From a virus: DNA of 64,000 bases. The DNA is taken from the IMG/VR virus record IMGVR_UViG_3300025834_000005; one strand, 5' to 3'. The stretch's first letter is position 1, and the number at the start of each line of letters is the position of its first letter. A program made the translations under genes and the position numbers. Below are positions 3,127-59,033 of the stretch, piece after piece. The notes under the pieces are model-generated. The model saw nothing but the letters and a program-made list of their open reading frames with translations, was not told where the DNA came from and did no database searches.

Positions 3127-3540
3127 ATGGATGGCTTTATAGATTTATCATTATATAATCCTTTAAAAAATTTTTTAAGTAATTCATTACGTAATCAATG
3201 GCTGACTTTCGATCACATGGAAATATATGTTCGAAAAAGCTGGCGTAACTATTGGCATATCAGAACCGATTTAAGGCATCCGACATGTCTCGACATAGCT
3301 TCTGTTAAGGTTGAGGAAAGCTTTCAGCATACAGGAATTTTTAAAGAATTTCTTAAACATGCGGAAGCCATTAATACACTACCTCTTATAATGGTTGAGA
3401 ATGTTTATAATCCTGTCTTGCCAGAGTTCTTAAAATCAGTTGGGTATACTGAATTTGACAGTATAAGCTATGTTAAGTTTAATGATCATTGTAAAGAATA
3501 TGATGATTGGCAAGCTGTAATAGAATCATTAAAGAAATAA
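3127..3540 (+). CDS. hypothetical protein (weak GNAT-like C-terminal pattern)
   Basis: ORF track; HTGIFKEFLKHAE...VENVYNPVLPEFLKSVGY is only a loose acetyltransferase-like resemblance. Confidence 0.55.
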   Translation: MDGFIDLSLYNPLKNFLSNSLRNQWLTFDHMEIYVRKSWRNYWHIRTDLRHPTCLDIASVKVEESFQHTGIFKEFLKHAEAINTLPLIMVENVYNPVLPEFLKSVGYTEFDSISYVKFNDHCKEYDDWQAVIESLKK

Positions 3541-3549
3541 AAATACATA

Positions 3550-3580
3550 TTTTCACATAATGTCGTTTTTCACATAATGT
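3550..3580 (+). repeat. 14-nt direct repeat TTTTCACATAATGT x2
   Basis: Copies at 3550-3563 and 3567-3580, just upstream of the HNH endonuclease gene, which has no TGTAACC motif. Confidence 0.8.
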
Positions 3581-3606: not shown

Positions 3607-4332
3607 ATGAAAATAACAAAAGATATCGCATGTAAAATTATAAATTTATTTTATGACGGAAATGGTTACTATGAAATCGCTAATATTGTTGGCGTCAGCG
3701 ATAATACAATTTATAGATTCATCAAATCAAAGGGCTTAAAATCTATTGATAGATTGAAACGACATAAGTGCTCCTTCGACCTAAATGAAATTGGTAATAA
3801 GTATAATCGATTGACAATTGTTGGCACTGAGTATAGCGAAATGTATAAGACTTGGTGCGCAAAATGCATTTGCGACTGTGGACAGGAAACCATTGAGACG
3901 TTACGAAAATTAAAAAATGGCGAAAGAAAAACATGCGGAAATAAAAATTGTGAGCATCATACTGAATTAAAAAGAATTAATGGCACTTTGACCACCACAA
4001 CAGGATATGAAAATATTTTAGGTAGCTCATGGGCATCATGGCGATTAGGAGCAGAACGAAGAAAAATAGATTTTTTAGTCACAATTGAAGAGGCTTGGGA
4101 TATTTATGTAAAACAAAATGGTAAATGTGCATTAACTGGCATAACATTAAAATTCAGAAAGGGTGAAAATAGAATACAAACAGCGTCATTAGATAGAATA
4201 GATTCATCGAAACATTATACTATTGATAATATACAGTGGGTTCATAAAGAAATTAATCGAATGAAAGGTTGTTTGCCCGAAGACAAATTTTTAGAATTTT
4301 GTAAAAATGTTGTAACATGGAACAAGAGTTGA
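3607..4332 (+). CDS. HNH homing endonuclease with N-terminal HTH
   Basis: C-terminal LDRIDSSKHYTIDNIQWVHKEINRMKG (HNH_3-like); N-terminal HTH YYEIANIVGVSDNTIYRFIK; start taken at second ATG. Confidence 0.75.
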   Translation: MKITKDIACKIINLFYDGNGYYEIANIVGVSDNTIYRFIKSKGLKSIDRLKRHKCSFDLNEIGNKYNRLTIVGTEYSEMYKTWCAKCICDCGQETIETLRKLKNGERKTCGNKNCEHHTELKRINGTLTTTTGYENILGSSWASWRLGAERRKIDFLVTIEEAWDIYVKQNGKCALTGITLKFRKGENRIQTASLDRIDSSKHYTIDNIQWVHKEINRMKGCLPEDKFLEFCKNVVTWNKS

Positions 4333-5345
4333 CAAGAGACGAATTTAGGGAAGGCGTTTTTAAACGTGACGATCATAAGTGTGTTATATGCGGTAATTTA
4401 GCTAAAGATGCCCATCACATAATTGAAAGAAGATTATTCAATCCTTCCAGCTCAGGATATTTCATTGATAATGGAGCATCTTTATGCTTTAATCACCATA
4501 TTGAGGCTGAGCAAACTACGCTTAGTTGCGATGAAATTAGATTAAAAGCTGGCATAACAACGATAGTAATTCCAGAGCATTTCTATGGAGATCAGACTTA
4601 CGATAAGTGGGGTAACATAATACTACCAACCGAGCAACGTATTAAGGGAGAGTTGTTTTATGATGAATCTGTTCAAAAGATTTTAAAACAAGGCAACGTC
4701 TTAGACCTGTTTCAAAAATATGTTAAATACCAACGTACCTATCATTTGCCTTGGAGTAATCTGTTAAAGGATGATCGAATCATTAAAGACGATAGCAATT
4801 TCACAGGCAAGAGGGTTATAGCTACGTTGAAAATGGACGGTGAAAACACTACCATGTACAATGACTACATTCATGCGAGGTCATTGGAAAATGCATCGCA
4901 TGAAACAAGGAATTGGGTTAAGGGCTTATGGTCGCAGATCGGCTACATGCTTGATGACAACATGCGAATTTGCGGCGAAAATTTATACGCACAACATTCT
5001 GTTAAATATGATAGTCTTCCATCGTATTTTATGATGTTCTCAATGTGGAGTGACAATACATGCATGTGCTGGGATGAAACTATTGAATACTCAAAGATAT
5101 TAGGGCTGGAAATGGTTCCAATTATCTATGATGGTATCTATGATAAGGATAAAATCATCGCAGCATTCGAGCCTTACAGACTTGCTAATGAGGGCTATGT
5201 AATCAGAATTGCCGATGAATTTAATTACATTGATTTCAGAAGATCAATTGCTAAGTTCGTCAGACCTGAATTTAGGCAAGCTGTTAACAATTCACATGGT
5301 CACTGGATTTCAAAAAAGATTGAAGCAAATGGCTTAAAGTTGTAA
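4317..5345 (+). CDS. HNH-like domain fused to ATP-dependent RNA ligase (Rnl2/PF09414-like)
   Basis: N-terminus HKCVICG...AHHIIERR...NGASLCFNHH (HNH). Ligase motif I KMDGEN, motif IV EGYVIR, motif V AKFVR. Confidence 0.7.
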   Translation: MEQELTRDEFREGVFKRDDHKCVICGNLAKDAHHIIERRLFNPSSSGYFIDNGASLCFNHHIEAEQTTLSCDEIRLKAGITTIVIPEHFYGDQTYDKWGNIILPTEQRIKGELFYDESVQKILKQGNVLDLFQKYVKYQRTYHLPWSNLLKDDRIIKDDSNFTGKRVIATLKMDGENTTMYNDYIHARSLENASHETRNWVKGLWSQIGYMLDDNMRICGENLYAQHSVKYDSLPSYFMMFSMWSDNTCMCWDETIEYSKILGLEMVPIIYDGIYDKDKIIAAFEPYRLANEGYVIRIADEFNYIDFRRSIAKFVRPEFRQAVNNSHGHWISKKIEANGLKL

Positions 5346-14582: not shown

Positions 14583-15716
14583 ATGAAAAGAATAAGTATT
14601 CAACCACGTAAGGATTATATTCAGAAACTGGAAGCTATTTCCTTTAATTTCCACACCATTGATGGAGTATATTGGGATGAATCAGCGTACTACGCATTCA
14701 ATATGCGTCAGGTAGAGCAGATCGAAAAAGCTACCAATGATCTATTCGAAATGATGCTCACAGCCGTTCAGTATGTAATTGATAAAAAGCTTTATAATAG
14801 GTTAAAAATCGATAACAAGATGATTGCCTTAATTGAGCAGTCATGGGAAGACGAACACCCAAGCGTGTATGGTCGATTTGATTTCGGATATGATGGAATC
14901 GGCACTCCTAAGATGTTAGAGTTTAATGCTGATACGCCAACATCGTTGTATGAGGGTTCTGTCGTACAATGGCACTGGATGCAAGAAATGTTTAAAGACA
15001 AAGATCAGTTTAATTCAATCCATGAAAAGCTCATAGCATATTGGGAAAGCTGTTTGAGTTACTTTGCTGATGAAACTGTTTATTTCACATCTGCCGACAC
15101 TATCGAAGATTTTACAACTGTTGAATATCTTCGAGACACTGCCTCACAAGCTGGACTTGATACAAAATTCATTGACATTAAAGACATTGGGTGGGATAAT
15201 AACAATCTCGAATTCATTGATATGGACGGTAATAAGATTGTAAACATCTTTAAACTATATCCTTGGGAATGGCTTATCGATGAAGAGTTTGGCAAGAATA
15301 TTTTAATCGAAAGAGAAAATACAATATGGTTTGAGCCAGCTTGGAAAGCAATTTTAAGTAACAAAGGTATTCTACCTATCTTATGGCAATTGTTTCCAAA
15401 TCATGAAAACCTTTTACCAGCCTATTTCGACTCATGTCACGAAATGAAAGATTATGTTAAGAAACCAATCTACTCTCGTGAAGGTGCAAACGTTACAATT
15501 TATCGTAACGGCGAAATCGTAGAATCATCAGATGGCGAATACGGCGAAGACGGCTATATCTATCAGGAATTCTATCAATTACCGTGTTTTAATGAGAACT
15601 ACCCAATCATAGGTAGTTGGGTTATCGGTGGCGAAAGTGCTGGAATGGGAATCAGAGAATGTAAAACTTTAATCACTGATAACATGAGCCGATTTGTACC
15701 ACACATCATAATTTAA
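14583..15716 (+). CDS. glutathionylspermidine synthase-like ATP-grasp amidoligase (YgiC/YjfC family)
   Basis: YGRFDFGYDG...MLEFNADTPTSLYE and C-terminal KPIYSREGANV...GGESAGMGIRE are typical of GSP_synth. Confidence 0.8.
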   Translation: MKRISIQPRKDYIQKLEAISFNFHTIDGVYWDESAYYAFNMRQVEQIEKATNDLFEMMLTAVQYVIDKKLYNRLKIDNKMIALIEQSWEDEHPSVYGRFDFGYDGIGTPKMLEFNADTPTSLYEGSVVQWHWMQEMFKDKDQFNSIHEKLIAYWESCLSYFADETVYFTSADTIEDFTTVEYLRDTASQAGLDTKFIDIKDIGWDNNNLEFIDMDGNKIVNIFKLYPWEWLIDEEFGKNILIERENTIWFEPAWKAILSNKGILPILWQLFPNHENLLPAYFDSCHEMKDYVKKPIYSREGANVTIYRNGEIVESSDGEYGEDGYIYQEFYQLPCFNENYPIIGSWVIGGESAGMGIRECKTLITDNMSRFVPHIII

Positions 15717-17790: not shown

Positions 17791-18222
17791 ATGAAAATTC
17801 AAATTAACAGCCTTGCGGCTTTAGAACGTTTAATCGGCGGTGATAATGACGTCGAGATCGAAATCAGAAAATCTGTTGTCGAAAACTTCATGAAAAAACA
17901 TATCAATGCCATTGCTAACAGTAAAGTTACGGAAGGTATTAAGACTGAAATCATGAACACATTGGTGACGAATCCGACAGGTTATAGGAGTGATGTCACT
18001 TTAACACCAAAAGCTAAAGAACTTTTCGCATCTGAAATCGATCATCAATTCAGAAGTATTGTTCGTGAATCTTTCAACGAATATATGTCAGCTAATGGTA
18101 TTGATCAGCTGATTAAAGATAAAGCAGCTTATATTGAACAGGAATTGACTGACAGAATTCTCGATAACAGAATTGAGCGAGAAGTTGATCTGGCGATTAA
18201 AAGAAGATTAAATTTAAAATAA
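17791..18222 (+). CDS. hypothetical protein
   Basis: ORF track. Confidence 0.65.
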   Translation: MKIQINSLAALERLIGGDNDVEIEIRKSVVENFMKKHINAIANSKVTEGIKTEIMNTLVTNPTGYRSDVTLTPKAKELFASEIDHQFRSIVRESFNEYMSANGIDQLIKDKAAYIEQELTDRILDNRIEREVDLAIKRRLNLK

Positions 18223-18234
18223 TTCATTTATTTT

Positions 18235-18264
18235 TGTAACCTTTTTATTTCAATTACGTATAAC
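18235..18264 (+). promoter_or_regulatory. phage promoter-like bipartite motif
   Basis: TGTAACC 18235; TACGTATAAC 18255; ATG 18301. Confidence 0.7.
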
Positions 18265-18300
18265 ATAGAAACAATTTAATAACAATTAATAATTATAACA

Positions 18301-18837
18301 ATGAAAAGTAAATTTTTAGGATTTTTTATGATCGCCATTATGGGAATTATGTTAATGGCTTCAAGTTGCGTTGAGACAGAGCAAAAAGAAACAGTCTCCC
18401 AGAGTGGTGTGAAAAAGGCTACCGTCACCGTTAAAACCGACTTAAATGGTAACACAACCGAGCAAGTTCATGTGCAACAGCGACTTATCGAAGACAACAC
18501 GCCTGGAAGTATTAAGCATTTATACATAATTTCGGCTTATTCTGGTCAGGTTATTCTTTACTCAACGGTAAAAAGCAAAGTAACTTCAAGCGGTAAAAGA
18601 CTAAACCCAACATCATTAGCATATACAGCAGGTCAAAGTTCAGGACAATGGTATAATCCAGACCTTATTCAGGATGATGGAACATATGGTAATAGTATTG
18701 AATACATTTATTGGTGGGATTCTAAAAACATCTATCATCAGCAGTACATTACTGGCGGAATGATTCTACATATCAGTAATCAGCCAATTGCCGTTAAATC
18801 GATCACATTAAACCTCGAAACTAATTCAAGTAACTAA
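18301..18837 (+). CDS. putative lipoprotein
   Basis: Signal peptide ending LMASSC. Confidence 0.65.
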   Translation: MKSKFLGFFMIAIMGIMLMASSCVETEQKETVSQSGVKKATVTVKTDLNGNTTEQVHVQQRLIEDNTPGSIKHLYIISAYSGQVILYSTVKSKVTSSGKRLNPTSLAYTAGQSSGQWYNPDLIQDDGTYGNSIEYIYWWDSKNIYHQQYITGGMILHISNQPIAVKSITLNLETNSSN

Positions 18838-18838
18838 T

Positions 18839-19312
18839 ATGAGAAAAATCATTTTATGGGGATTATTAATCCTTGTCGGTCTGTTCTTCGTGAACATTAT
18901 CTTTAAAACTTGCAGCACTGCCAATAAAATGGTTGACAATGGCTTCAAGACAGCTTACGAGCAGTTTAAGCCAGAAGTGCTCTTGAAGAAATATGAGTGG
19001 TTTAAGGATGCTGCATCGCAGTGCGATCAGAAAATTGCCACACTCGGAACATACGATACCCGATTCAAAGAACTGAAATCAACATATGGTGCTGACAGTA
19101 CGAAAAGAAAGTCATGGGCACGTGATGACAGGGAACAGTGGAATGTATGGCAATCTGAATATCTTGGCTTAAAGGCAAGCTATAACGATCTATCAGCCGA
19201 ATACAATGCAGCTATGGTAAAATTCAATTATAGGTTTTGTAATGTGGGCGATTTGCCACAAGGCGCAACGGTGGTATTGCCAAGGAGTTTTAAGCCTTAT
19301 TTAAATAATTAA
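18839..19312 (+). CDS. membrane-anchored hypothetical protein
   Basis: N-terminal TM ILWGLLILVGLFFVNIIF. Confidence 0.65.
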   Translation: MRKIILWGLLILVGLFFVNIIFKTCSTANKMVDNGFKTAYEQFKPEVLLKKYEWFKDAASQCDQKIATLGTYDTRFKELKSTYGADSTKRKSWARDDREQWNVWQSEYLGLKASYNDLSAEYNAAMVKFNYRFCNVGDLPQGATVVLPRSFKPYLNN

Positions 19313-19328
19313 AAAAATCGCAAATATT

Positions 19329-19358
19329 TGTAACCTTTTTTAAGTTGCAACGTATAAG
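19329..19358 (+). promoter_or_regulatory. phage promoter-like motif driving an RNA gene
   Basis: TGTAACC 19329; AACGTATAAG 19349; tRNA-like element starts 19373. Confidence 0.65.
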
Positions 19359-19372
19359 TGATAAAGAATATG

Positions 19373-19439
19373 GGAGTTTTAGCTCAGTTTGATAGAGCGG
19401 TAGAAATACAGGTCAGAGGTTTGAATCCTCTACACTCCC
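19373..19439 (+). ncRNA. tRNA-like element lacking an anticodon arm
   Basis: Acceptor GGAGTTT/ACACTCC (1 mismatch). D arm GCTC-AGTTTGATA-GAGC. T arm AGAGG-TTTGAAT-CCTCT. Variable region AGGTC. Anticodon arm replaced by GTA-GAAA-TAC (19400-19409). Confidence 0.55.
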
Positions 19440-20157
19440 ACTTAGACATGAGTCTACAATAAATACGTTCTTTGAAAATATTTAAATGTTATGGATATTA
19501 CCCGAAGTAATGAGGATAGAGAAAGCTGAGCGATGGCTCATAAAGTCGATGGCAAGTAATGATGTGTAATAAAATCAACTTGATCAGACTCCCGATTGAA
19601 TAATGGACGGACTAAGTGCATATCTCTCAAAATCCATAGTATAAACTTTTCTGCTTGAAGCAATTAGCATAAGATCGTATTAAATGTTACGTGAGTGTAG
19701 ATGTATGCAGATATCGTTAATTGTGTAAAGGATAATTGGTGTAAGCGATGGCTGACGAACAACATTGTGATGAACTTTGCGTATAGGTCGTTTACGGTTA
19801 TTTCCCTGCAATGGACGGAAAAGTTTAAAACATTGTGAATTAAAAACAGGCGTAGTATCATAAAGGCATCTATGTATGTCACGCATAGACTTATCGCCGA
19901 TTGTCAATTTGATACAGTTCACATCACATAATAATCCTGATTTAACAGGATGTTGATAGAGAAATCTAAAGTAAAAATCCATCTGGTAAATGGTATGATT
20001 CGAAGTAGTATAGTGTGTCACTAACCATGAACATTATGACGTTGAAATCTGGGTAAATCGAAAAGAATCACGCTGTTGTTGACATTTCATAGGAGTTCGA
20101 AGCTCTGAAAAATTTGTTGTATCAGCAGACCATCAACGGGGCAACCCTATTTTTTTT
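19440..20157 (+). ncRNA. ORF-free tract 1 (~0.72 kb), candidate large structured RNA
   Basis: No + strand ORF of 60 aa or more in an otherwise tightly packed genome. Lies between a promoter plus tRNA-like element and GGG-GCAA-CCC + T8 (20138-20157). Shares blocks with 20498-21110. Confidence 0.5.
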
Positions 20158-20177
20158 ACAAAATAATGTGTTATTTT

Positions 20178-20207
20178 TGTAACCTTTTTAAAGTTGTTAC
20201 GTATAAC
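20178..20207 (+). promoter_or_regulatory. phage promoter-like bipartite motif
   Basis: TGTAACC 20178; TACGTATAAC 20198; ATG 20226. Confidence 0.7.
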
Positions 20208-20225
20208 ATAGAAACAATAATAATC

Positions 20226-20348
20226 ATGTTAAGTTTACCAGAAGAAAAAGATAGCATTTGGGATAAAAGAAGCTCAGCAAAAGTACGTAGCGATGCAAAA
20301 CATAAAGCTTCGTGTGCTAAAGCTCATTCCAAACGAAAAAGAAAATAA
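20226..20348 (+). CDS. small basic protein (40 aa)
   Basis: Track ORF 20166.. trimmed to ATG 20226 after the promoter motif; Lys/Arg/Ser-rich. Confidence 0.45.
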   Translation: MLSLPEEKDSIWDKRSSAKVRSDAKHKASCAKAHSKRKRK

Positions 20349-20353
20349 AATAT

Positions 20354-20497
20354 GGGCGTGATTCAGTCAACAATGTTTTCAAATCGCATGCAGATAAAAA
20401 ACGTTGTCGGAGAGTTTTCAATGTGAAAGTATAAGAATATCGATAATTCTTTATGATAATATTGATAAAGGGGTTCGATTCCCTACACTGTCCACCA
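20354..20497 (+). ncRNA. tRNA-like RNA with encoded CCA (resembles a tmRNA tRNA-like domain)
   Basis: 5' GGGCGTG pairs with 3' CAC(T)GTCC, including a G3-U pair. T arm GGGG-TTCGATT-CCCT. Ends ...TCCACCA. No D stem or anticodon arm; ~95 nt internal. Confidence 0.4.
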
Positions 20498-21110
20498 TGA
20501 GGGCTTTAGAGGGTATGCATACTTTCAAAAGTTATTGATTGCCAAGTCTAAAACGCCGAGATATCTAAGGCGATAAAGATTATAATCTCTAAAACTCAAC
20601 AGAATTATCATAGAATGATTGAAGTAGTACAAGTAGAAGGCGATGTGGGTATATGCATGTATTCCAAGTAGTTCAGGCAACATTAGTCCATGATGAATAC
20701 GTAGTTATTATGGGTGAGTAAAATAATCTTCAATCATTTTTACATTATTAAAAATAAGTTCAGTTCTGCTTAAAGCAAATAGCAACAAGGCATATATTTC
20801 ACATGAAAGTGTGAGCAGTGGATGTTGAAGATCAATACCAGATCGTTATTTGTGGAGAGTTCAGGCACTGCCAGAGGGTAGGTTAGCCAAATTATGACTT
20901 GGTAAGTTAGACCAGAAATGTTCTTTAAAAGGTTTGCGATGTGGTTCGAATGCTAAGAGCGATAATAGAACTATTTTGGTTTGTGGTATACCAAGAGACG
21001 ACAAAATCCTACAACTCGGTCTTATAAATCGAGGACAGGTGTAAACCACTGCATAAGTCAGCTTGTCGGCGAAAATCCGATCATCGCAAATCTTTTTTTA
21101 TTTAAAAACT
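20498..21110 (+). ncRNA. ORF-free tract 2 (~0.6 kb), candidate large structured RNA
   Basis: No credible + strand ORF. Blocks 20764-20784 and 20811-20859 match 19649-19669 and 19691-19731. T-rich end at 21094-21100. Confidence 0.5.
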
Positions 21111-21118
21111 TTAGAATT

Positions 21119-21424
21119 ATGTTAGAAGCAAAAGAAGCACGTTGTCGTGTTGTTCACTGTAAAAAAGAACCATATGACATTTATATTGGCAGACCAAGCA
21201 AATGGGGAAATCCATTCACGCATTTAAAAGGCTCTACGCAAGCGAAATATACAGTCGAAACCAGAGAAGAATCTATTGAGGCTTTTCGTGATTGGGTTGT
21301 AAATGGTGAAGGAAACTATCTTATGGCTGACTTACACGAATTAAAGGGTAAAACATTAGGATGCTGGTGTAAACCATTATCATGTCACGGCGACATTCTT
21401 GCTGAATTAGCTGATAATATTTGA
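21119..21424 (+). CDS. DUF4326-like protein
   Basis: Track ORF trimmed to ATG 21119; YIGRPSKWGNPF...GCWCKPLSCHGDIL. Confidence 0.7.
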   Translation: MLEAKEARCRVVHCKKEPYDIYIGRPSKWGNPFTHLKGSTQAKYTVETREESIEAFRDWVVNGEGNYLMADLHELKGKTLGCWCKPLSCHGDILAELADNI

Positions 21425-21440
21425 ATAATCGCATATTTAT

Positions 21441-21626
21441 ATGGGACGCACACATGAGGATTTTGATAAATTCACAACACAGGATTTATTTGATGAAATT
21501 TTAAGTATGGAAAGCGGCGATCTATACGACGGCTGTAGCAGTAAAGGACTACAACGTGAGCAAAATGCCGCAAAAAAAGTGTTCGGAGAACGAATGCAAA
21601 AATTAGGAGTTGATTGGATTTTATAA
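21441..21626 (+). CDS. hypothetical protein
   Basis: ORF track. Confidence 0.5.
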   Translation: MGRTHEDFDKFTTQDLFDEILSMESGDLYDGCSSKGLQREQNAAKKVFGERMQKLGVDWIL

Positions 21627-21635
21627 ATTTTACAC

Positions 21636-21956
21636 ATGATTTTGAAAAAAGTGAAAACGATTAAAACAACAACAATAATTACAATACTTTCGCTATTATT
21701 AGCAATTGGATTGTATTCAGTTTACAACGTTGTTGACAGCCATAATAGATATACGCTTGCTCTCAATGAGAACCGTATTGCTGTTACGAATGCAATTAAC
21801 ATAACAATGAAAGAGGCGCAAAATGCGGCATATCTTCAAGGTGTTATTGATGGCAAAAATGGAACAATAAAAAAGGAATTTAAAGGTGGGACATATAATT
21901 TTTATCTACCGTTAATTAAAGATTCGCTTGAAGCGAGAATCAATAGTATAAAATGA
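21636..21956 (+). CDS. membrane-anchored hypothetical protein
   Basis: N-terminal TM TTTIITILSLLLAIGLYSV. Confidence 0.6.
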   Translation: MILKKVKTIKTTTIITILSLLLAIGLYSVYNVVDSHNRYTLALNENRIAVTNAINITMKEAQNAAYLQGVIDGKNGTIKKEFKGGTYNFYLPLIKDSLEARINSIK

Positions 21957-22026
21957 AGATAACAGAATCAGCGAGTTTGATCACTTGGGATTCGGGGAAT
22001 AGTTGATGAAGTATCAGGAATAAGGT

Positions 22027-22057
22027 TTTCGATTGAAAGATGATCATCGAAATTTTT
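22027..22057 (+). terminator. hairpin + T-run
   Basis: TTTCGAT 22027-22033 pairs with ATCGAAA 22046-22052, followed by TTTTT. Confidence 0.55.
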
Positions 22058-22085
22058 GAGTAGTTGACTATTTTTTGTAAATAAT

Positions 22086-22218
22086 GGCAGAATAGCGGAA
22101 TTGGTAAACGCTATATCAGAACTATGGGCGACGTTTAACGATAAGGCAAACCCTAAATGTTTGATATAATCAGGGACTTATCGCTCTGAATTTATTGGTT
22201 CGAGTCCAATTTCTGCCA
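22086..22218 (+). tRNA. tRNA-Leu(UAA)-like gene, expanded to 133 nt
   Basis: Acceptor GGCAGAA/TTCTGCC. D region GCG-GAATTGGTAAA-CGC. T arm ATTGG-TTCGAGT-CCAAT. Anticodon hairpin CAAAC-CCTAAAT-GTTTG (22147-22163, C at position 33). 34 extra nt after the D arm; ~30-nt variable region. Confidence 0.55.
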
Positions 22219-22290
22219 CAGGTCGGGTCATAACCGAATGAACTTTGGAGATCGAGGTAGCCAAAGAGAGATTGAAAAAATGCTCGACCA

Positions 22291-22381
22291 GTCGAAGTAG
22301 CTCAGTTGGTTTAGAGCACCAGCATCGGTCTACGTTTACGTAACGTGTAGGGGGTCAGGGGTTCGAGTCCCTTTTTCGACA
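22291..22381 (+). tRNA. tRNA gene with a 16-nt insert in the anticodon-stem 5' strand
   Basis: Acceptor GTCGAAG/TTTCGAC, with canonical D and T arms. Deleting 22321-22336 gives stem CCTAC/GTAGG and loop GTAACGT (anticodon AAC). The unspliced alternative has a TTACGTA loop (ACG). Confidence 0.55.
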
Positions 22382-22467
22382 CAATGCAGTATTCTCCGAA
22401 AGGAACGAGCATTAGTAGTAACATAGTCAGTGAGGTTCACACTATAGTTTTAGCAACTGACAATCAT

Positions 22468-22647
22468 AGAGCTATGCAGCAGGGGAACTGTTGTACCTAT
22501 TTATAGGATGGCAATGATGCAGAACGGAGTTATCAAATGGATTACATTTAGCTAATGTTTCCATTTAACCAATCTGTAATCATAAATAAAAATAGCAAAT
22601 GCGCATTTGCTTATTTTAGCCTTTGGGTTCGACTCCCTTTAGCTCTG
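22468..22647 (+). ncRNA. tRNA-like gene of 180 nt with a ~106-nt internal expansion
   Basis: Perfect 7-bp acceptor AGAGCTA/TAGCTCT. D arm CAGC-AGGGGAACT-GTTG. T loop GGG-TTCGACT-CCC. Short hairpin CCTA-TTTA-TAGG where the anticodon arm should be. Internal hairpins at about 22533-22567 and 22595-22612. Confidence 0.4.
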
Positions 22648-22735
22648 CATAAAGGAAGAGGCGGTTCATAAAAATCTGGAAAATCCAGATACCGAGAAGT
22701 ATAAAAAATTCTTCTTCCGATTAAAGTATTAATAC

Positions 22736-22777
22736 ACCTTCCATGCCTCTCCACGATGCACACTTGGAAGGTTTTTT
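22736..22777 (+). terminator. hairpin + T-run closing the tRNA-like cluster
   Basis: ACCTTCCA 22736-22743 pairs with TGGAAGGT 22765-22772, followed by TTTTT. Confidence 0.5.
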
Positions 22778-22781
22778 CTTT

Positions 22782-22811
22782 TGTAACCTTTTCAACTTTA
22801 TTACGTATAAC
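22782..22811 (+). promoter_or_regulatory. phage promoter-like bipartite motif
   Basis: TGTAACC 22782; TACGTATAAC 22802; ATG 22827. Confidence 0.7.
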
Positions 22812-22826
22812 TTAGAAAATATTTAC

Positions 22827-23339
22827 ATGAAAACATTAGTAATACATCCATCAGATCGGTCTACAGACTTTTTAAAGGTTATCTACATGGATAAGGATTG
22901 GACAGTTATAAATGACGTAAGAGTATCTAAAAGACAGCTAAAAATGCAAATAATGGCACATGACCGTATCGTTATGCTTGGTCATGGCAGTCCTGATGGT
23001 TTATATGCGCAAATGAGACTCATGATCGATTCGACATTCGTTCAATTCTTAAGGAATAAACAATGCGTATGTATCTGGTGTAACGCTGACTTATTTGTTC
23101 ATAGGTACGGTTTAAAGGGTTTTTATACTGGTATGATTTTATCCGATACATTTGAGTGCAACCTATATAGCGTAATGCATACCTTTGAGCATTTAATGGA
23201 GTCTAACGACTTATTTCCAACAGCTATCAAAGCAGCTATAGACTCTGACGATATGATTGGAATTTCCAAGTCACTGTATCATAGCGATGTAAACCCTGTC
23301 ATATATTTCAATCAGAATAATTTGTATCAAAATCTGTAA
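22827..23339 (+). CDS. hypothetical protein
   Basis: Track ORF 22743.. trimmed to ATG 22827 after the promoter motif. Confidence 0.65.
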   Translation: MKTLVIHPSDRSTDFLKVIYMDKDWTVINDVRVSKRQLKMQIMAHDRIVMLGHGSPDGLYAQMRLMIDSTFVQFLRNKQCVCIWCNADLFVHRYGLKGFYTGMILSDTFECNLYSVMHTFEHLMESNDLFPTAIKAAIDSDDMIGISKSLYHSDVNPVIYFNQNNLYQNL

Positions 23340-23364
23340 CAAATGCAATTTCGTTACGTATAAG
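23335..23364 (+). promoter_or_regulatory. phage promoter-like bipartite motif
   Basis: TGTAACA 23335 (contains the stop); TACGTATAAG 23355; ATG 23370. Confidence 0.65.
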
Positions 23365-23369
23365 AGGAT

Positions 23370-23657
23370 ATGAATCAAAAATTAGAAAGGCTATTAAAAG
23401 GCGAAACATTCACTACAAGTGAGAAGGGTAATTCGATGATGCCTCTTATTAAATCAGGGCAAGATCATGTATTAGCACCTGTAAAACTTGACGAGCTTGC
23501 TCGTGGCGATATTGTTTATTGCAAGGTTAAAGGTAATTTTTACACACATTTGGTAAAAGCTGTGAGCACTGATAAAGGTGCGCTAATCGGGAATAATAAA
23601 GGTAATATTAACGGATGGACTAAACAAGTCTATGGAAGAGTAATTAAAATAATTTAA
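23370..23657 (+). CDS. S24/LexA-like peptidase domain protein
   Basis: GNSMMPLIKSGQ...GDIVY resembles the S24 GDSMxP core; weak. Confidence 0.5.
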   Translation: MNQKLERLLKGETFTTSEKGNSMMPLIKSGQDHVLAPVKLDELARGDIVYCKVKGNFYTHLVKAVSTDKGALIGNNKGNINGWTKQVYGRVIKII

Positions 23658-23659
23658 AT

Positions 23660-23833
23660 ATGAGAGAGATTAATAAAGCTGAAACCATTATGAATATCAT
23701 GGACAGCATTAAAAAGGATAAATCAACTGGTGTGGATATGGTTAAGTTAAAAGAAAAATTGAAAAATCCGACAGATGAATTCATTTCAAACATTGCAACG
23801 TATTACGGAGCAGAAATAGTTTACGAAAATTAA
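23660..23833 (+). CDS. small hypothetical protein (57 aa, below track cutoff)
   Basis: ATG 23660 lies 2 nt after upstream stop; read by hand to TAA 23831-23833. Confidence 0.5.
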   Translation: MREINKAETIMNIMDSIKKDKSTGVDMVKLKEKLKNPTDEFISNIATYYGAEIVYEN

Positions 23834-23840
23834 TAAAAAT

Positions 23841-24311
23841 ATGAAAGGAATATTTGACTGGCTTAGAACATCTGTTTTAAAATCGAAAGAAATTAAAGAT
23901 GATCAATTTGCCATAAACGCATTGGGTGCTGAACCGTCATTAGATTATAATGCAATGGCAAAGGAGTATAAAAAAACAGCCGCATCGGAAATGGCAATAG
24001 GCGATGTAATGTTTATCGCTATGGGACAGCCGCTTGAAACGAACATATCGCCAGAAGGCATGACTGCTTATAAATGGAAACCAGAGTCATTTGAGTTCTT
24101 ATTAACAATGGTCGATGAAATAAGCCGTCGAGTTGGCAAACATTCGTCATTCAAATCCACTGTTTATAAAAACGGTACGATACCTTCGAAATATTTCTCA
24201 TACTACTGGTATCACGAAACGCCTATAATCTCATTATCCTGTATTTGCAGCGAAATAGGTAAAAATAAGCCTGATCGTATTGATGTACTATTAATTGTAG
24301 CACCAAAATAA
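23841..24311 (+). CDS. hypothetical protein
   Basis: ORF track. Confidence 0.65.
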   Translation: MKGIFDWLRTSVLKSKEIKDDQFAINALGAEPSLDYNAMAKEYKKTAASEMAIGDVMFIAMGQPLETNISPEGMTAYKWKPESFEFLLTMVDEISRRVGKHSSFKSTVYKNGTIPSKYFSYYWYHETPIISLSCICSEIGKNKPDRIDVLLIVAPK

Positions 24312-24313
24312 TT

Positions 24314-24628
24314 ATGAACTACACAACATTAGGCTCTGTCACCAAATATCCTATGATTATTCAGCTAACGGATAATTTAGCGAAAATGAATGATAATCAG
24401 AGGATTTATATCACAAGTTTCGTCAACAGATTCCATATCGGAATACGGAATACTCGGCAAATAAAAGACACCAAATTTAGAGATTATGTGCTATCTTTAG
24501 TGCGAAAGGATTATCTATCGATGGTCGATGAATTCATGGAAAAGTATGATAATGAATCTATGACATATCTAAAGTGTTTTATAGTGGCAATAATAAGAAA
24601 TGAGACAACCCATGATACTTTTAAATAA
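24314..24628 (+). CDS. hypothetical protein
   Basis: ORF track. Confidence 0.6.
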   Translation: MNYTTLGSVTKYPMIIQLTDNLAKMNDNQRIYITSFVNRFHIGIRNTRQIKDTKFRDYVLSLVRKDYLSMVDEFMEKYDNESMTYLKCFIVAIIRNETTHDTFK

Positions 24629-24633
24629 ATTGT

Positions 24634-24663
24634 TGTAACCTTTTTCTTTTTAGTACGTATAAG
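24634..24663 (+). promoter_or_regulatory. phage promoter-like bipartite motif
   Basis: TGTAACC 24634; TACGTATAAG 24654; ATG 24676. Confidence 0.7.
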
Positions 24664-24675
24664 AAAATAAAAGCC

Positions 24676-25128
24676 ATGAAATTAAAATTACTTTTGGTCA
24701 CCATTATCATGTTTTTAGCAATTAAATCTGTTGTTGCTATTGAAAAACCATTACAGCAGATATTATCCGAGAAGTACGGAATGTATGAGAAGGTCGAAAT
24801 AGATACCGATGGTTACACTTCATACATATGGAAAACAGAATTACGTGATTACACTGAGGGCATGATTGAAACCATTAATGTATATGTTGGTGATCTACCC
24901 TATAATAAGGTAATCGGACGATACAATGGCGATGCTGTGCCAGCTGTTTCTGATATTACAGAATGGGAAAGTAGAACAATTTATGTCTCAATGGTAAAAG
25001 TATTTGGAAAACTTGAAGTAGATGGGATTAAATTTGAGGTGATGAGCTTATGTGTGATCATAAAAAATAAAAAAGGTGCGAAAAACACTAAGAATCAACA
25101 TACAGTACAAGAACGATTAAAAAAATAA
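24676..25128 (+). CDS. secreted or membrane-anchored hypothetical protein
   Basis: N-terminal signal LLLVTIIMFLAIKSVVA. Confidence 0.6.
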   Translation: MKLKLLLVTIIMFLAIKSVVAIEKPLQQILSEKYGMYEKVEIDTDGYTSYIWKTELRDYTEGMIETINVYVGDLPYNKVIGRYNGDAVPAVSDITEWESRTIYVSMVKVFGKLEVDGIKFEVMSLCVIIKNKKGAKNTKNQHTVQERLKK

Positions 25129-25130
25129 TT

Positions 25131-25388
25131 ATGGAAAAGAAAAAATTAACAGTCACAGTCGCTGGTGCTGCTGGCTCAGGAAAGTCACACCTGCTATTTT
25201 TAATTAAAAGCTTTCTAAAAGATAATGGTTTCGACGTGAACCATAATGTTAGCTACGATTTAAACTCTGAAATAGGCTTTGATTGGTGCGTAAACACCAA
25301 TTTCAACAAAGCGATTGAATCGATAAGGCAAACTACCTCAATAACAGTTAATGAGGTTCAGACAGCACAAAAACCAAAAGAAAATTAA
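25131..25388 (+). CDS. small protein with a P-loop-like GAAGSGKS
   Basis: ORF track; Walker A-like motif only. Confidence 0.55.
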   Translation: MEKKKLTVTVAGAAGSGKSHLLFLIKSFLKDNGFDVNHNVSYDLNSEIGFDWCVNTNFNKAIESIRQTTSITVNEVQTAQKPKEN

Positions 25389-25390
25389 TT

Positions 25391-25570
25391 ATGCACGAAG
25401 TAACAATAGAAGAATTGAAATTGAATAGTACCATTTATGTTAAAAAGTTTGGTACGAATATGGCGGTAGCTGAAAAAACAAAGCTACCGAATAAGAATTA
25501 CGAAATCACTTTCGAAAATGGCGATACAATGATTTGTAAGCCACGTACAGTATTGGAGCTAATAGGTTGA
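25391..25570 (+). CDS. small hypothetical protein (59 aa, below track cutoff)
   Basis: ATG 25391 lies 2 nt after upstream stop; read by hand to TGA 25568-25570. Confidence 0.5.
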   Translation: MHEVTIEELKLNSTIYVKKFGTNMAVAEKTKLPNKNYEITFENGDTMICKPRTVLELIG

Positions 25571-25890
25571 AAGATATTGATAAAGAATATGTTCTTGAAA
25601 GAATTGTAAATGAATTCTGGATTGATCGTAATGGTAAGTCTCACTATTACAGCGGAACACTTGAAGATGCTTATCAGGTTTGCTCTTTTCATTTCGATAT
25701 TGCTCGAAGTTTATACCCAGAAATAAATTACCCTGATGACGTTTTAACAAGATTAGGATGGATTGCTGTTGGCTCAGGTTCTTATAAGGAAAGTATTAAC
25801 AAATACCCTACGAATAGACAATGCCAAGCATTACGTAAATTAGGACATTGCTCAATAACATTATATGATGGGACAGAGCTATCACTTTAA
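25567..25890 (+). CDS. hypothetical protein (TTG start)
   Basis: ORF track; TTGA overlap with upstream stop. Confidence 0.55.
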   Translation: MKDIDKEYVLERIVNEFWIDRNGKSHYYSGTLEDAYQVCSFHFDIARSLYPEINYPDDVLTRLGWIAVGSGSYKESINKYPTNRQCQALRKLGHCSITLYDGTELSL

Positions 25891-25899
25891 ATTAAAAAT

Positions 25900-26094
25900 A
25901 TGAGATACGATAAAATCGATAGGTATTGTGAGTTAATCGCTACTATTAACTCTGAGAATTCAAAATTAAGAGAATTGCGCAATGAACATCATGAAGGCGG
26001 TTACAGTTTTGAAGATATTTATGTGGAAGATATAAAAAGGCTTCATGAGTACCGTTGCGAATTAAGAGACATAATTAAATTTATAAACTCTTAA
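25900..26094 (+). CDS. hypothetical protein
   Basis: ORF track. Confidence 0.55.
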   Translation: MRYDKIDRYCELIATINSENSKLRELRNEHHEGGYSFEDIYVEDIKRLHEYRCELRDIIKFINS

Positions 26095-26095
26095 T

Positions 26096-26248
26096 ATGCA
26101 GGAAATTTACATGGAAGTGACACTCCAATACATGTTCGCTTTAGGTCAAATGGATGATGCACAAGCACTTGTAGCTAAATCAAGTCAACATATACTTGAA
26201 ACAGTAAGTTATATCAAGCTATTGCCTGAAAATGAGCCGACCAATTAA
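26096..26248 (+). CDS. small hypothetical protein (50 aa)
   Basis: Read by hand; ATG lies 1 nt after upstream stop. Confidence 0.45.
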   Translation: MQEIYMEVTLQYMFALGQMDDAQALVAKSSQHILETVSYIKLLPENEPTN

Positions 26249-26396
26249 AGAAACGCCTATATTATATGGCGAAGATGCTCGTAGGTTTATCTCTAATCAT
26301 GAAAATCCTACGCAGCTTTCCAATGAGGTAAAAGAGAGAATGAAGAGGAATTATGAGAAAATCTCCAAATTAGTGAAAAGCACATCGAAGGACTAA
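26232..26396 (+). CDS. small hypothetical protein (54 aa)
   Basis: Read by hand; overlaps the previous small ORF by 17 nt. Confidence 0.45.
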   Translation: MSRPIKETPILYGEDARRFISNHENPTQLSNEVKERMKRNYEKISKLVKSTSKD

Positions 26397-26405
26397 AGTT
26401 TATTT

Positions 26406-26434
26406 CATAGTATTTATGTGAAAATAATACTATG
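26406..26434 (+). promoter_or_regulatory. 9-bp hairpin that sequesters the lysozyme start codon
   Basis: CATAGTATT 26406-26414 pairs with AATACTATG 26426-26434 (ATG = 26432-26434). Confidence 0.4.
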
Positions 26435-26956
26435 AACCAGAAAATAAGCCAAAACGGAATTGATCTCATAAAACATTATGAAAGTATTAATGATGGTGAC
26501 CTATCAAAAATAGGGTTACAACCAAAACCTGATTGTAGCGGATATATGACTATCGGCTATGGTAGAGTTTTAATTAAACCACAAGGCGGATATGTAAAAA
26601 CTCTTGCAGATGTGGATAAATACTTTCCACAATATGGAACAATTACTATACAACAAGCTGAACAATACCTTGCTGAGGACTGTAACAAATTCGAAAATAA
26701 TGTTAATTCACTTGAATTAACATTAACACAAGGACAGTTTGATGCTTTGGTCTCATTTAGTTTTAACGTCGGGTTTGGTGCATTGAAAGGGTCTACATTA
26801 TTAAAAAGAATAAAACAGATCGTATCAACACCTTCAATTGAAGTATGTTTTGGAATGTGGAATAAAAGTGCTGGCGTTGCTTATAGGGGTTTAACTTTCA
26901 GACGCCAAACAGAAGCCCTATTATACAATACTGGTGTACTTAAGTTTTTTAATTAA
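26432..26956 (+). CDS. GH24 (T4-type) lysozyme / endolysin
   Basis: LIKHYE...PD...GYMTIGYGR catalytic E/D/T pattern; FDALVSFSFNVG. Confidence 0.85.
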   Translation: MNQKISQNGIDLIKHYESINDGDLSKIGLQPKPDCSGYMTIGYGRVLIKPQGGYVKTLADVDKYFPQYGTITIQQAEQYLAEDCNKFENNVNSLELTLTQGQFDALVSFSFNVGFGALKGSTLLKRIKQIVSTPSIEVCFGMWNKSAGVAYRGLTFRRQTEALLYNTGVLKFFN

Positions 26957-26968
26957 AAACAGTTTGTA

Positions 26969-27400
26969 ATGAAACAAGATACAAAAAGAGAAATATCTCA
27001 CATAGCTAAGAGAATCAATGAAATACTTGATACATGCAATCCGTCATCGGCAACGCCACCACCATCATCAATGGCTGGTGGTTCAACACCTGTTCCTGAC
27101 GAAATCGGTAATCATCCTCAAAGTACTAATGAACAAATAGCTGGAACACCACCGCAAGCATCTGTACAAACAGCACAACAAAAGCCATTAGCATCTGACG
27201 TACAATCATTACAAAGAGCCACTGCAAATGCTGGTTCTGTTAGTAAGGCAAGCGGACGTATTAACACATCAACTGAATTTCCGCAAGCTTTTAAAGTATG
27301 GTTTGGAACTTTAGGATATAATCCGCAAAATAAGGCTATAACAATTCAACGAGTACGAACAGAGGTTGAGAAAGCCATGCGAGAAATGGGTTACAGATAA
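26969..27400 (+). CDS. hypothetical protein (Pro/Ser/Gln-rich centre)
   Basis: ORF track. Confidence 0.6.
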   Translation: MKQDTKREISHIAKRINEILDTCNPSSATPPPSSMAGGSTPVPDEIGNHPQSTNEQIAGTPPQASVQTAQQKPLASDVQSLQRATANAGSVSKASGRINTSTEFPQAFKVWFGTLGYNPQNKAITIQRVRTEVEKAMREMGYR

Positions 27401-27417
27401 TCAGATATTCATATATT

Positions 27418-27450
27418 AAAAAGGTTACATTAGTTTGTAACCTTTTTTTT
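27418..27450 (+). terminator. perfect 12-bp hairpin + T9; 3' arm is the promoter box 1
   Basis: AAAAAGGTTACA 27418-27429 pairs with TGTAACCTTTTT 27436-27447. Confidence 0.7.
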
Positions 27451-45545: not shown

Positions 45546-46709
45546 ATGAGAACAAGTGTCGTACTCGGATTAGGATTCGGGGATGAAGGTAAGGGAAGTA
45601 TGGTAAACTTTCTATGTAAGGTACATAAAAATGAACGTCCATTGGTGGTTAGATTTAGTTCTGGACACCAAGTAGGTCATACCGTTGTCGAGGGTGATCT
45701 TAGACATGTTTTTTCAAATTTTGGGTCAGGGACTCTTAGTGATGTGCCAACATACTGGTCAGAGTATTGCACGATGAATCCATCAGCCATACGGTCAGAG
45801 GGCGAAGCATTAAAGAAGATGGGTGTATTTCCGACACTATATATTAACGATAATGCGATGGTTACAACACCATACGACATATTAAAGAATCGTATGTCAG
45901 AGACTAAGAATCGTCATGGCAGTGTTGGTGTTGGGTTTGGCTCGACTATTCAGCGTAATGAGGATCATTTCAAGCTATATGCCAGAGATTTGAAATTTCC
46001 TAAAATTCTTGATATTAAATTGAAACATATTGCCGAGATATATCATAAAAGCACTTTTGTCGAATATCCTGATGGTTATGTTGAGAAACTGATAAATAAT
46101 TTTAAGCTTGATTGCAAATATGTTGTAAATGAGCATATGTTTGTTTCTCGCATTAATGATGTTATATATGATAAGCAATTTGGACATTTAATATTCGAAG
46201 GAAACCAAGGTATCATGCTTGATCAGGATTATGGTTTCTTTCCAAATGTAACCAGATGCAATACAACGTCGAAAAATGCTTTTGAGATCATGAAAAAATA
46301 TGGTGTTCATACTGGCGAAACAAACGTTTACTATATGACACGTGCATATCAAACTCGTCATGGTAATGGTGAAATGATTAATGAGGGAATGGATGTGCAA
46401 TACATTGCTGAGAATCCTCTTGAAACCAACGTACAAGGCGAATTTCAAGGTAGTTTTAGGAAAGCACCTCTGGATTTACAGACAATTAAATATGCTTTAT
46501 CATGCGATAAAGTATATAATGACTATAGCATATCGAATCTTGTTATAACATGCATGGATCAAGTTCCTGAACGCATACCTATTATGAACGGCGATAAATT
46601 AGCTCACATGTATCCGTCACTAATAGGTTCTATTCTGAATATAAGACCCTTAAATATATTCATAAGTAAATCGGATAAAGGTGATTTTGAAAATGCAATG
46701 GATTTATGA
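45546..46709 (+). CDS. adenylosuccinate synthetase family protein (divergent PurA, or PurZ-like)
   Basis: GLGFGDEGKGSMV (P-loop), SSGHQVGHTV, GNQGIMLDQDYGFFPNVT, TRAYQTRHGNG. Confidence 0.8.
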   Translation: MRTSVVLGLGFGDEGKGSMVNFLCKVHKNERPLVVRFSSGHQVGHTVVEGDLRHVFSNFGSGTLSDVPTYWSEYCTMNPSAIRSEGEALKKMGVFPTLYINDNAMVTTPYDILKNRMSETKNRHGSVGVGFGSTIQRNEDHFKLYARDLKFPKILDIKLKHIAEIYHKSTFVEYPDGYVEKLINNFKLDCKYVVNEHMFVSRINDVIYDKQFGHLIFEGNQGIMLDQDYGFFPNVTRCNTTSKNAFEIMKKYGVHTGETNVYYMTRAYQTRHGNGEMINEGMDVQYIAENPLETNVQGEFQGSFRKAPLDLQTIKYALSCDKVYNDYSISNLVITCMDQVPERIPIMNGDKLAHMYPSLIGSILNIRPLNIFISKSDKGDFENAMDL

Positions 46710-58570: not shown

Positions 58571-58635
58571 AGCGTTCGGTAAGGGTTACTTCCTCCATAA
58601 ATGAAATCACACCCTACCATCAGTTCTTTGCTTAC
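58571..58635 (+). ncRNA. structured RNA module U1 (Y-RNA-like candidate)
   Basis: AGCGTTC + helix GGTAAGGGT (58578-58586) / ACCCTACC (58611-58618) + tail ATCAGTTCTTTGCTTAC. Confidence 0.5.
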
Positions 58636-58909: not shown

Positions 58910-59033
58910 AGGGCGTTAGCTCAGTTGGTAGAGCGCGAAATTCTCTTTTACACCTTTTCCCTTTATTGTGGCGTTCGTAAAAGTTACTTCATTCTTAATG
59001 ACGAGGTCGGTGGTTCGAGTCCATCATGCCCTA
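58910..59033 (+). tRNA. tRNA-Lys(CUU)-like gene interrupted by a 51-nt insert in the anticodon stem
   Basis: Acceptor AGGGCGT/ATGCCCT. D arm GCTC-AGTTGGTA-GAGC. T arm GGTGG-TTCGAGT-CCATC. Variable region AGGTC. Deleting 58938-58988 gives stem CGTCA/TGACG and loop TTCTTAA. Confidence 0.65.

Follow-up and report, generated by a model that had tools for sequence, protein, structure and literature searches.

Two long non-coding tracts in a tRNA-like gene island of an uncultured jumbo phage

Results

Organization of the locus

The virus record IMGVR_UViG_3300025834_000005 derives from an uncultured jumbo phage of ~328 kb, and the stretch analysed here, hereafter the window, is a 64,000-nucleotide (nt) part of its contig (JGI 3300009686) with a GC content of ~34% and nearly all of its genes on the + strand. 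Positions 19313–22826 of the window hold an island of transfer RNA (tRNA)-like genes that includes two long tracts devoid of credible open reading frames (ORFs), at 19440–20157 (tract 1) and 20498–21118 (tract 2), which a sequence-only reading of this DNA had proposed as paralogous giant structured RNAs, possibly of the GOLLD or ROOL classes. Comparison with sister lineages indicates that the tracts are a patchwork of spacers, decayed tRNA genes and a few small conserved hairpin modules.

Each tract stands downstream of one copy of a standard promoter and one tRNA-like element, and both promoters are co-oriented with all surrounding genes (Table 1). Unit 1 comprises the promoter P1, an anticodon-less tRNA-like element (A), tract 1 and a short hairpin followed by T8, and unit 2 comprises the promoter P2, a 40-amino-acid (aa) ORF, a tRNA/transfer-messenger RNA (tmRNA)-like element (B), tract 2 and a long hairpin domain with a U-run before the next gene. 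The motif that had been taken for a phage promoter is a real repeated element, TTGTAACCTTTT-N9-TTACGTATAAC, with ~30 copies, all on the + strand, and P1 is also kept ahead of the homologs of A in two sister lineages, L066 and L070. The hairpin and T8 said to end tract 1 are likewise present (GGGGCAACCC and T8, 20139–20157), with a stem below the size that the terminator scan detects. In its extended form, TTGTAACCTTTT-N9-TTACGTATAAC(a/t)AGAAA, the promoter-like motif spans 30 nt and each copy lies 15–40 nt 5' of a start codon. Copies are also found at, for example, 488, 5340, 14534, 28079 and 59164; the spacing of the motif is unusual for a sigma-70 promoter, and the genes generally lack Shine-Dalgarno sequences.

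Table 1. Features of the two promoter-headed units, in window coordinates.
Feature	Position	Strand	Remarks
Promoter P1 (TTGTAACC...ACGTATAAG)	19328–19357	+	motif copy 15 nt upstream of tRNA-like A
tRNA-like A	19372–19440	+	full cloverleaf; 3-bp anticodon stem with GAAA tetraloop; no CCA encoded
Small hairpin and post-tRNA spacer motif ACAAnAAATAnGTTCTTTGAAAATA	19441–19482	+	motif found behind tRNAs in relatives
158 nt without counterpart	19483–19640	+	no equivalent among the relatives or at other window positions; z -0.8
Shortened, diverged homolog of element X	19641–19823	+	contains covarying helix 19660–19668/19716–19724
92-nt patch	19832–19923	+	100% identical to L070 4738–4829; background ~77%; sharp borders
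Hairpin ATCCTG-ATTTAA-CAGGAT	19925–19958	+	conserved in L066 4647–4680
Probable decayed tRNA gene	~19990–20062	+	20004–20055 aligns to an L070 tRNA
Unit 1 end: GGGGCAACCC hairpin and T8, short-stem intrinsic terminator	20111–20157	+	homologous to L066 4720–4774 (T-run broken there)
Promoter P2	20177–20206	+	motif copy
Small 40-aa ORF, Lys/Arg-rich C-terminus	20226–20348	+	called by JGI and Logan
tRNA/tmRNA-like B	20354–20497	+	multi-hairpin RNA; acceptor-like closing stem, T-arm, encoded ACCA end
M1, three hairpins	20498–20605	+	~92% identical to L070; every changed pair stays paired
M2, window-only 143-nt insertion	20606–20748	+	missing from L070
M3/M4, spacer motif and 5' strand of covarying helix (20775–20783)	20749–20815	+	20791–20815 window-only; M3 conserved
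M5, core in all four lineages	20816–20926	+	3' strand of covarying helix (20845–20853) and hairpin CTGCC/GGTAG
M6, 170-nt domain closed by 11-bp helix GGTTTGCGATG/CATCGCAAATC, then U-run	20927–21103	+	15 nt before next gene

Both tracts are real non-coding DNA. The claim that they carry no credible ORF is borne out by stops in all six frames of each, and their unusual size by the JGI gene calls, in which the median intergenic gap is 7 nt and the island contains the three largest ones, of 913, 870 and 770 nt. On a codon-usage log-odds score trained on window genes, real genes average 9.8 +/- 5.2 in frame and the tracts, at the best of six frames, mostly lie near 0, with isolated patches of up to 7.9; their six-frame translations matched no Pfam or PHROG family. 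An alternative genetic code was discarded on per-frame stop counts, which show no single reassignable stop, and a minus-strand ORF of 113 aa at 19680–20021, called by one pipeline, was rejected on its negative coding scores and the lack of a Pfam or PHROG family. A + strand ORF of 45 aa (19701–19838) has a mildly positive codon score, but its alignment to the element X of the relatives, described below, is full of non-triplet indels, and the relatives show no ORF at this position.

Mosaic homology with sister lineages

The informative relatives were located through flanking genes and belong to the phage group of the window, in which they form three additional lineages (L066, L070 and L073) with coding genes at ~67–84% nucleotide identity to those of the window. 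L066 and L067 were reached through the closest DUF4326 homolog in a large protein collection (79% identity), and L070/L071 and the short contig L073 through a 61-aa neighbour gene. The comparison set hence consists of four lineages, two of which cover the tracts only in part. At the position of tract 1 the relatives carry three to five tRNA or tRNA-like genes together with element X, and one lineage has a protein gene there as well. Rfam tRNA matches occur within L066 3411–5078 at 3487–3555, 4169–4239 and 4326–4400, and ARAGORN places tRNAs in this contig at 3636–3713, 4169–4240 and 4326–4401 (Leu). The L066 interval from the homolog of A to that of the tract 2 end is also ORF-free, and its tRNAs comprise a tRNA-Leu(GAG) and two whose anticodon loops are 6 nt long, alongside a class-II-like tRNA-like element. 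The L070 interval follows the same plan, with four ARAGORN tRNAs, tRNA-Ile(GAT) among them, and an inserted gene of 93 aa.

Tract 1 can be read piecewise against these intervals. The ACAAnAAATAnGTTCTTTGAAAATA motif that follows A recurs after tRNAs in both L066 (4400–4423 and 3710–3735) and L070 (4642–4661 and 3852–3874), and the homolog of X shares ~60% identity with L066 3845–3981 and L070 4091–4225 (z 2.7–4.0). The 92-nt patch of complete identity to L070 suggests either recent recombination between phages or extreme constraint, and its 5' half resembles, by eye, the class-II-like tRNA-like gene at L066 4515–4545. In the hairpin that follows, the L066 counterpart reads GTTCTG-AATTAA-CAGAAC, with two double compensatory changes relative to the window. 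Further downstream, the probable decayed tRNA gene aligns to positions 14–68 of the L070 tRNA at 4406–4477 with a z of 4.2 and has no tRNA score at E<=10; when each tRNA of the relatives was compared with both tracts, one of 16 comparisons stood out. Lastly, the terminal segment of unit 1 matches the L066 segment that immediately precedes the core of tract 2, and therefore 20168–20852, comprising P2, the small ORF, B and the first half of tract 2, is an insertion in the window relative to L066.

Tract 2 shows a similarly modular composition. The window-only segment M2 looks like a decayed tRNA with its usual spacer: it bears weak similarity to 19946–20090, and 20712–20779 aligns to L066 3688–3756, where the 3' half of a tRNA is followed by a spacer and the start of X, leaving 20712–20735 as the putative tRNA remnant. 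The hairpin of M5 becomes CTTTCC/GGAAAG in L073, as read from the alignment. M6 is intact and 87.5% identical in L066; its 3' end is 94% identical in L070, where the interior is deleted, and the entire domain is missing from L073. Overall, the conserved non-coding blocks are 77–100% identical to L070, compared with 67–84% for the flanking coding genes.

A covarying helix shared by the tracts

The three sequence blocks reported as shared between the tracts are all present, and the first two are the two strands of a single helix, with one copy in each tract (Table 1). Five copies were compared, one from L066 and two each from the window and L070, and the helix keeps 8–9 pairs throughout. Both partners have changed at three of its positions, and at four a single change preserves the pair, in several cases as G-U; these G-U pairs favour a helix that acts as RNA over a DNA palindrome. 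The alignments thus point to a structured module of ~65–80 nt that is present once per tract and has been duplicated. The palindrome TGCTTnAAGCA occurs exactly twice in the 64 kb, once per tract, and is broken in L070 (TGCTTAAGGTA). The third block, in its tract 1 copy, lies within the decayed-tRNA candidate.

Element X, of which tract 1 keeps a shortened homolog, is a non-coding element of ~430 nt located between tRNA genes in L066 (3729–4170) and L070 (3975–4407), with copies that are 83% identical. X folds with a z of -2.1, and each of its 114 predicted pairs is preserved in both copies, four of them through double changes (none in slid controls). X is a candidate mid-sized structured RNA, of which the window holds only a truncated copy. 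The two-sequence pair counts used here for X, and below for B with M1, are biased, for the structures were predicted from the same alignments, and are only suggestive; with two sequences, shuffle controls carry no information.

Tests for a giant structured RNA

The proposed membership in known large RNA classes found no support in Rfam 15: no GOLLD, ROOL, HEARO, OLE, intron or riboswitch model matched at gathering thresholds across the whole window or at E<=10 in 19200–21300, and the group I and group II intron and tmRNA models suggested by the sequence-only reading fared likewise, apart from the weak tmRNA match of B described below. The minimum free energy (MFE) of the tracts is ordinary, with z of +0.42 for tract 1 and -1.12 for tract 2 (+0.14 and -0.83 on the reverse strands), and even the best-conserved sub-regions score -0.09 (M5) and -0.87 (M5–M6). 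Given this ordinary MFE, the mosaic conservation, the window-only segments of 143–158 nt, the domain deletions in sister lineages and the presence of tRNA genes and a protein gene in the same interval of the relatives, the idea that each tract is one large ornate fold is not supported.

Paralogy along the length of the tracts was not recovered under standard scoring. The best ungapped match between them agrees at 19 of 21 nt (E 0.05 in a BLAST search of the window), an nhmmer comparison of 19646–19734 with 20761–20863 yields E 1.1, and a second weak collinear similarity, between 19850–20107 and 20517–20768 (62% identity, Smith-Waterman z 6.7), appears under one lenient scoring scheme only. The GTTCGAA motifs described as T-loop-like exist, at 20095 and 20944, but the sequence places them outside T-arm-like stems. 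What stands of the sequence-only reading is therefore its observation of non-coding gaps, promoter, shared blocks and terminator, without the length-wide paralogy or the T-arm-like motifs; the idea of structured phage RNA beside tRNA-like genes holds for context and local structure, and is not supported for GOLLD/ROOL membership or for one large fold per tract. The context itself is that of GOLLD and ROOL, a phage locus near tRNA genes, with flanking elements that are here tRNA-like.

tRNA-like elements of the island

The island has the make-up of a phage tRNA cluster, with tRNA-type elements at 19372, 20354, 22087 and 22291 behind promoters. Element A scores 40.1 bits against the Rfam tRNA model (match 19373–19439, gathering score 29), and its cloverleaf is the MFE structure (z -2.0). 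Relative to L066, five double compensatory changes were counted by hand, three in the acceptor stem and two in the mini anticodon stem, and the homologs of A in L066 and L070 also have a 3-bp anticodon stem, with a 6-nt loop. A thus possesses the acceptor, D and T arms of a cloverleaf but lacks a 5-bp anticodon stem with a 7-nt loop. ARAGORN detects no tRNA or tmRNA anywhere in the 64-kb window, A and B included, and no decoding-competent tRNA was found in it, while L066 and L070 keep one each (Leu-GAG and Ile-GAT, respectively). The anticodon loops of the island are replaced, not merely mutated, and for this reason its tRNA-like RNAs are unlikely to decode.

Both ends of the Rfam tmRNA model match B weakly (11.1 bits, E 0.083, gathering score 47). 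B folds with an MFE z of -2.2 and is kept in L070 5484–5626 with pair-keeping changes; for B and M1 together, all 64 predicted pairs are kept between window and L070, with four double changes and 0–1 in slid controls. As a tmRNA, B falls short in score, in the ARAGORN result, in its G3-U70 pair, which is A-U in L070, and in a tag-like frame, none being seen. The 40-aa ORF directly precedes B, and its C-terminal half, though not its N-terminal half, is kept in L070 5353–5478 (41 aa). It may encode a small RNA-binding peptide, or the region may be conserved as RNA.

A third ORF-free gap, 21957–22826 (870 nt), belongs to the same island. It contains an insert-bearing tRNA-like element at 22087–22219 (insert of ~75 nt; 86% mean column identity across four lineages), another at 22291–22381, and possibly one more at ~22519–22651; their tRNA homologs in the relatives have 6-nt anticodon loops (ARAGORN 'tRNA-???'). 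At 22737–22772, a hairpin and U-run directly before a promoter match the Rfam abiF RNA motif (40.5 bits, gathering 37), with 96% conservation in L070 and ~91% in L073. This segment looks like a terminator that either fits the abiF motif by chance or shares ancestry with it.

Neighbouring genes and further searches

The DUF4326 gene (21119–21424) that follows tract 2 is shared by the window and L066 and precisely missing from L070 and L073, where a 61-aa gene comes directly after the non-coding element without DUF4326 between; the DUF4326 family is very widespread in unrelated phages (3473 matches at E<=1e-20). Elsewhere, the window encodes an RtcB RNA ligase (48834–50159), a glutathionylspermidine synthase (14583–15716; Pfam E 4.9e-149), an adenylosuccinate synthetase (45546–46709) and a Ro60/TROVE protein (57068–58501). 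The joint presence of RtcB and Ro60 suggests a toolkit for RNA repair or quality control. Past the Ro60 gene, an exact 21-nt motif, RGYGTTMGNNANRGTTWCWTC, occurs at 58651, 58798, 58970 and 59045 (four copies versus 0.1 expected), with a likely fifth, variant copy near 58575 identified by eye. One copy lies inside a tRNA-like element at 58910–59033 (Rfam tRNA 42.6 bits) in which a 64-nt insert replaces the anticodon arm. This region could be a phage equivalent of Y RNA; the YrlA and Y RNA models gave no match in the window or beside the TROVE gene.

Two further contigs match the window closely: over 8839–29312, a span of 20,474 bases, L004 differs at one base, while L005 shows no difference from 17957–27447. 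No DNA match to the window was obtained among GenBank phages, and its rIIA-like protein has distant relatives only. Relatives reached through the upstream gene 18839–19312 (L001–L003 and L060–L065; 42–74% amino-acid identity) were uninformative on the tracts, for the common part is limited to two genes and protein genes occupy the tract site, and 54 IMG/VR loci reached through DUF4326 came from unrelated phages without similarity. The 106-aa neighbour gene recovered no relatives, and exact-pattern scans with the first shared block and conserved 20-mers found nothing in viral or metagenome contigs. A scan with a 19-mer pattern from M5 recovered the L070 lineage in three copies; its two other matches, in GC-rich bacterial genes (L074 and L076), are due to chance.

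Discussion

We consider it probable, at roughly 60%, that the two tracts represent the non-coding residue of a rapidly evolving island of tRNA-like genes, present as processed spacer and trailer RNA, and not two giant RNAs. The observations that carry this interpretation are the promoter-headed units, the non-coding nature of the tracts, their mosaic homology, the tRNA genes of the relatives, the gain and loss of modules and the short covarying helices. By analogy with phage tRNA operons, the island would be transcribed as a polycistronic precursor RNA, from which host RNase P and 3'-end tRNA-processing nucleases would excise the tRNA-like RNAs, freeing the tracts as trailer or spacer RNA that would mostly lack a function of its own. 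M1, the helix-enclosed X-type module and M5/M6 may then provide local structures for processing, stability or termination, or be small stable RNAs. The island would have grown through duplication of tRNA-spacer units and recombination between phages, and shrunk through decay and deletion, which may have left this lineage with no canonical tRNA.

Several points weigh against this interpretation. M1 and M5/M6 are conserved beyond their neighbouring genes, more than a passive spacer needs, and the T8 terminator that closes unit 1 has a stem of only 3–4 bp. In the four-sequence consensus of M5–M6, RNAalifold returns a single double change and a positive covariation term, that is, no covariation support, and with few lineages all covariation tests are weak. 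Furthermore, the processing and the trailer fate are steps that we infer, and whether the window lost material or the relatives gained it is judged from two modest tRNA-remnant alignments.

The island may be a functional set of anticodon-less tRNA mimics with conserved companion RNA modules, deployed together with the Ro60 and RtcB of the phage, a proposal that we regard as possible and hold tentatively. The mimics would include A, with its tetraloop, the tmRNA-like B and the insert-bearing elements at 22087–22219 and 22291–22381, and the companions M1, the helix-enclosed X-type module, M5/M6 and the ~430-nt X of the relatives. By analogy with known systems, such mimics could serve as decoys or inhibitors of host defences that target tRNA, or as cofactors in RNA repair or quality control. 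If so, the conserved parts of the tracts would constitute new RNA families and the X of the sister lineages perhaps a new mid-sized structured RNA.

A cis-acting role for M5–M6 as a leader, whether attenuator, terminator or promoter, controlling read-through into the next gene is unlikely. The region is always directly 5' of that gene, be it DUF4326 (window and L066) or the 61-aa gene (L070 and L073), and that next gene has no standard promoter copy. M6 forms a long hairpin with a U-run behind it, and its 3' end is the most conserved part (94%). However, a leader of this kind sits uneasily with the loss of M6 in L073 and its trimming in L070, and it matches no riboswitch, T-box or leader family, with no alternative antiterminator pairing identified.

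Somewhat more doubtful still is the notion that the tracts, or the X of the relatives, embody a new class of large structured RNA travelling with phage tRNA genes in the manner of GOLLD and ROOL. The phage setting, the adjoining tRNA-like genes, the dedicated promoter and terminator, the fold of X (z -2.1) with every predicted pair kept between L066 and L070, and the retention in the window of part of X, covarying helix included, all speak for it. Set against these are the empty Rfam searches, tracts that fold no better than shuffles, pair counts biased by structures taken from the same alignment, domains of tract 2 that are dispensable in sister lineages, and a window copy of X reduced to ~180 nt at ~60% identity, outside which tract 1 consists of tRNA debris or unique sequence. 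On this evidence, a new giant phage RNA class lacks support.

Two other explanations are very improbable. Decay of protein genes in a hypervariable early-gene region would agree with the ordinary protein genes that distant relatives carry directly 3' of their homolog of gene 18839–19312, with the protein genes inside the L070 interval and with the coding-strand-like composition of the tract strand, but the tracts retain no codon bias or Pfam/PHROG similarity in six frames, tblastn against the proteins of the relatives and of the window itself, including a search for a pseudogene of a window paralog, returned nothing, indels that separate the conserved part from L066 have lengths not divisible by three, and the recognisable remnants are tRNA-like. 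A role of the conserved blocks as DNA, in a replication origin, a packaging site or protein-binding palindromes, would account for the one TGCTTnAAGCA per tract, but L070 breaks the palindrome while keeping the long-range, G-U-tolerant helix, and no iterons, AT-rich unwinding element or GC-skew shift were found.

As the non-coding remainder of a tRNA-like island, the tracts offer a worked example of phage tRNA island turnover through unit duplication, recombination patches, decay and deletion, and they illustrate that long ORF-free gaps beside tRNA-like genes need comparative data before they are labelled as ornate RNA. The analysis also brings to light a group of tRNA mimics that are conserved and clearly do not decode, in a jumbo phage with genes for Ro60 and RtcB. 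Should these mimics act against tRNA-targeting defences or in RNA repair, they would constitute a novel type of phage RNA tool.

Some phage tRNAs are known to evade host anticodon nucleases through altered anticodon loops (PMC10264068; PMC11555353). The tRNA-type genes of the island likewise have anticodon loops that deviate from those usual in hosts; here, however, the loops are replaced by a tetraloop, 6-nt loops or inserts of 16–75 nt. The acceptor-like stem with G3-U70 in the window, the T-arm and the encoded ACCA end of B recall tmRNA, but B is only 144 nt long, scores 11 bits versus 47, has no recognisable tag frame and shows A-U in place of G3-U70 in L070. The YrlA Y RNAs are tRNA mimics bound by Ro60/Rsr and usually encoded within about 4 kb of the Ro60 gene, and their hallmark is a Ro60-binding helix with a GNCGAAN0-1G motif (PMC4201824). 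As in YrlA systems, the phage encodes Ro60/TROVE, RtcB and RNAs with D-arm, T-arm and acceptor but no usable anticodon. Unlike YrlA, A and B have the end arrangement of a normal tRNA, with 5' and 3' ends brought together in the acceptor stem. In addition, the island lies 36 kb from the Ro60 gene and no YrlA or Y RNA model matches.

With GOLLD and ROOL, the tracts have in common a size of ~0.6 kb, the association with phages and the proximity of tRNA genes (PMC5737381; PMC12286853), and this resemblance is one of context only (PMC5737381). Unlike those RNAs, the tracts match no covariance model at any threshold tried, show no excess folding stability and no evidence of multistem junctions or pseudoknots, and are gained and lost by modules instead of being conserved as a whole. 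In the tRNA region of phage T4, stable RNAs known as species 1 and 2 (rnaC/rnaD) are co-transcribed with the tRNAs, and the tRNA region of T5 is comparable. The island differs from these clusters in that the window has no canonical tRNA by ARAGORN, every tRNA-type element bearing a defective or replaced anticodon arm, and in its spacers of 0.6–0.7 kb, versus tens of bases. It shares with them the co-oriented tRNA-type genes behind phage promoters, the small ORFs and spacers between these genes, the embedded small RNAs of unassigned role and a content that varies strongly among related phages. Judged by this analogy, the closest known arrangement would be the T4 type of phage tRNA operon, in which stable RNAs are embedded.

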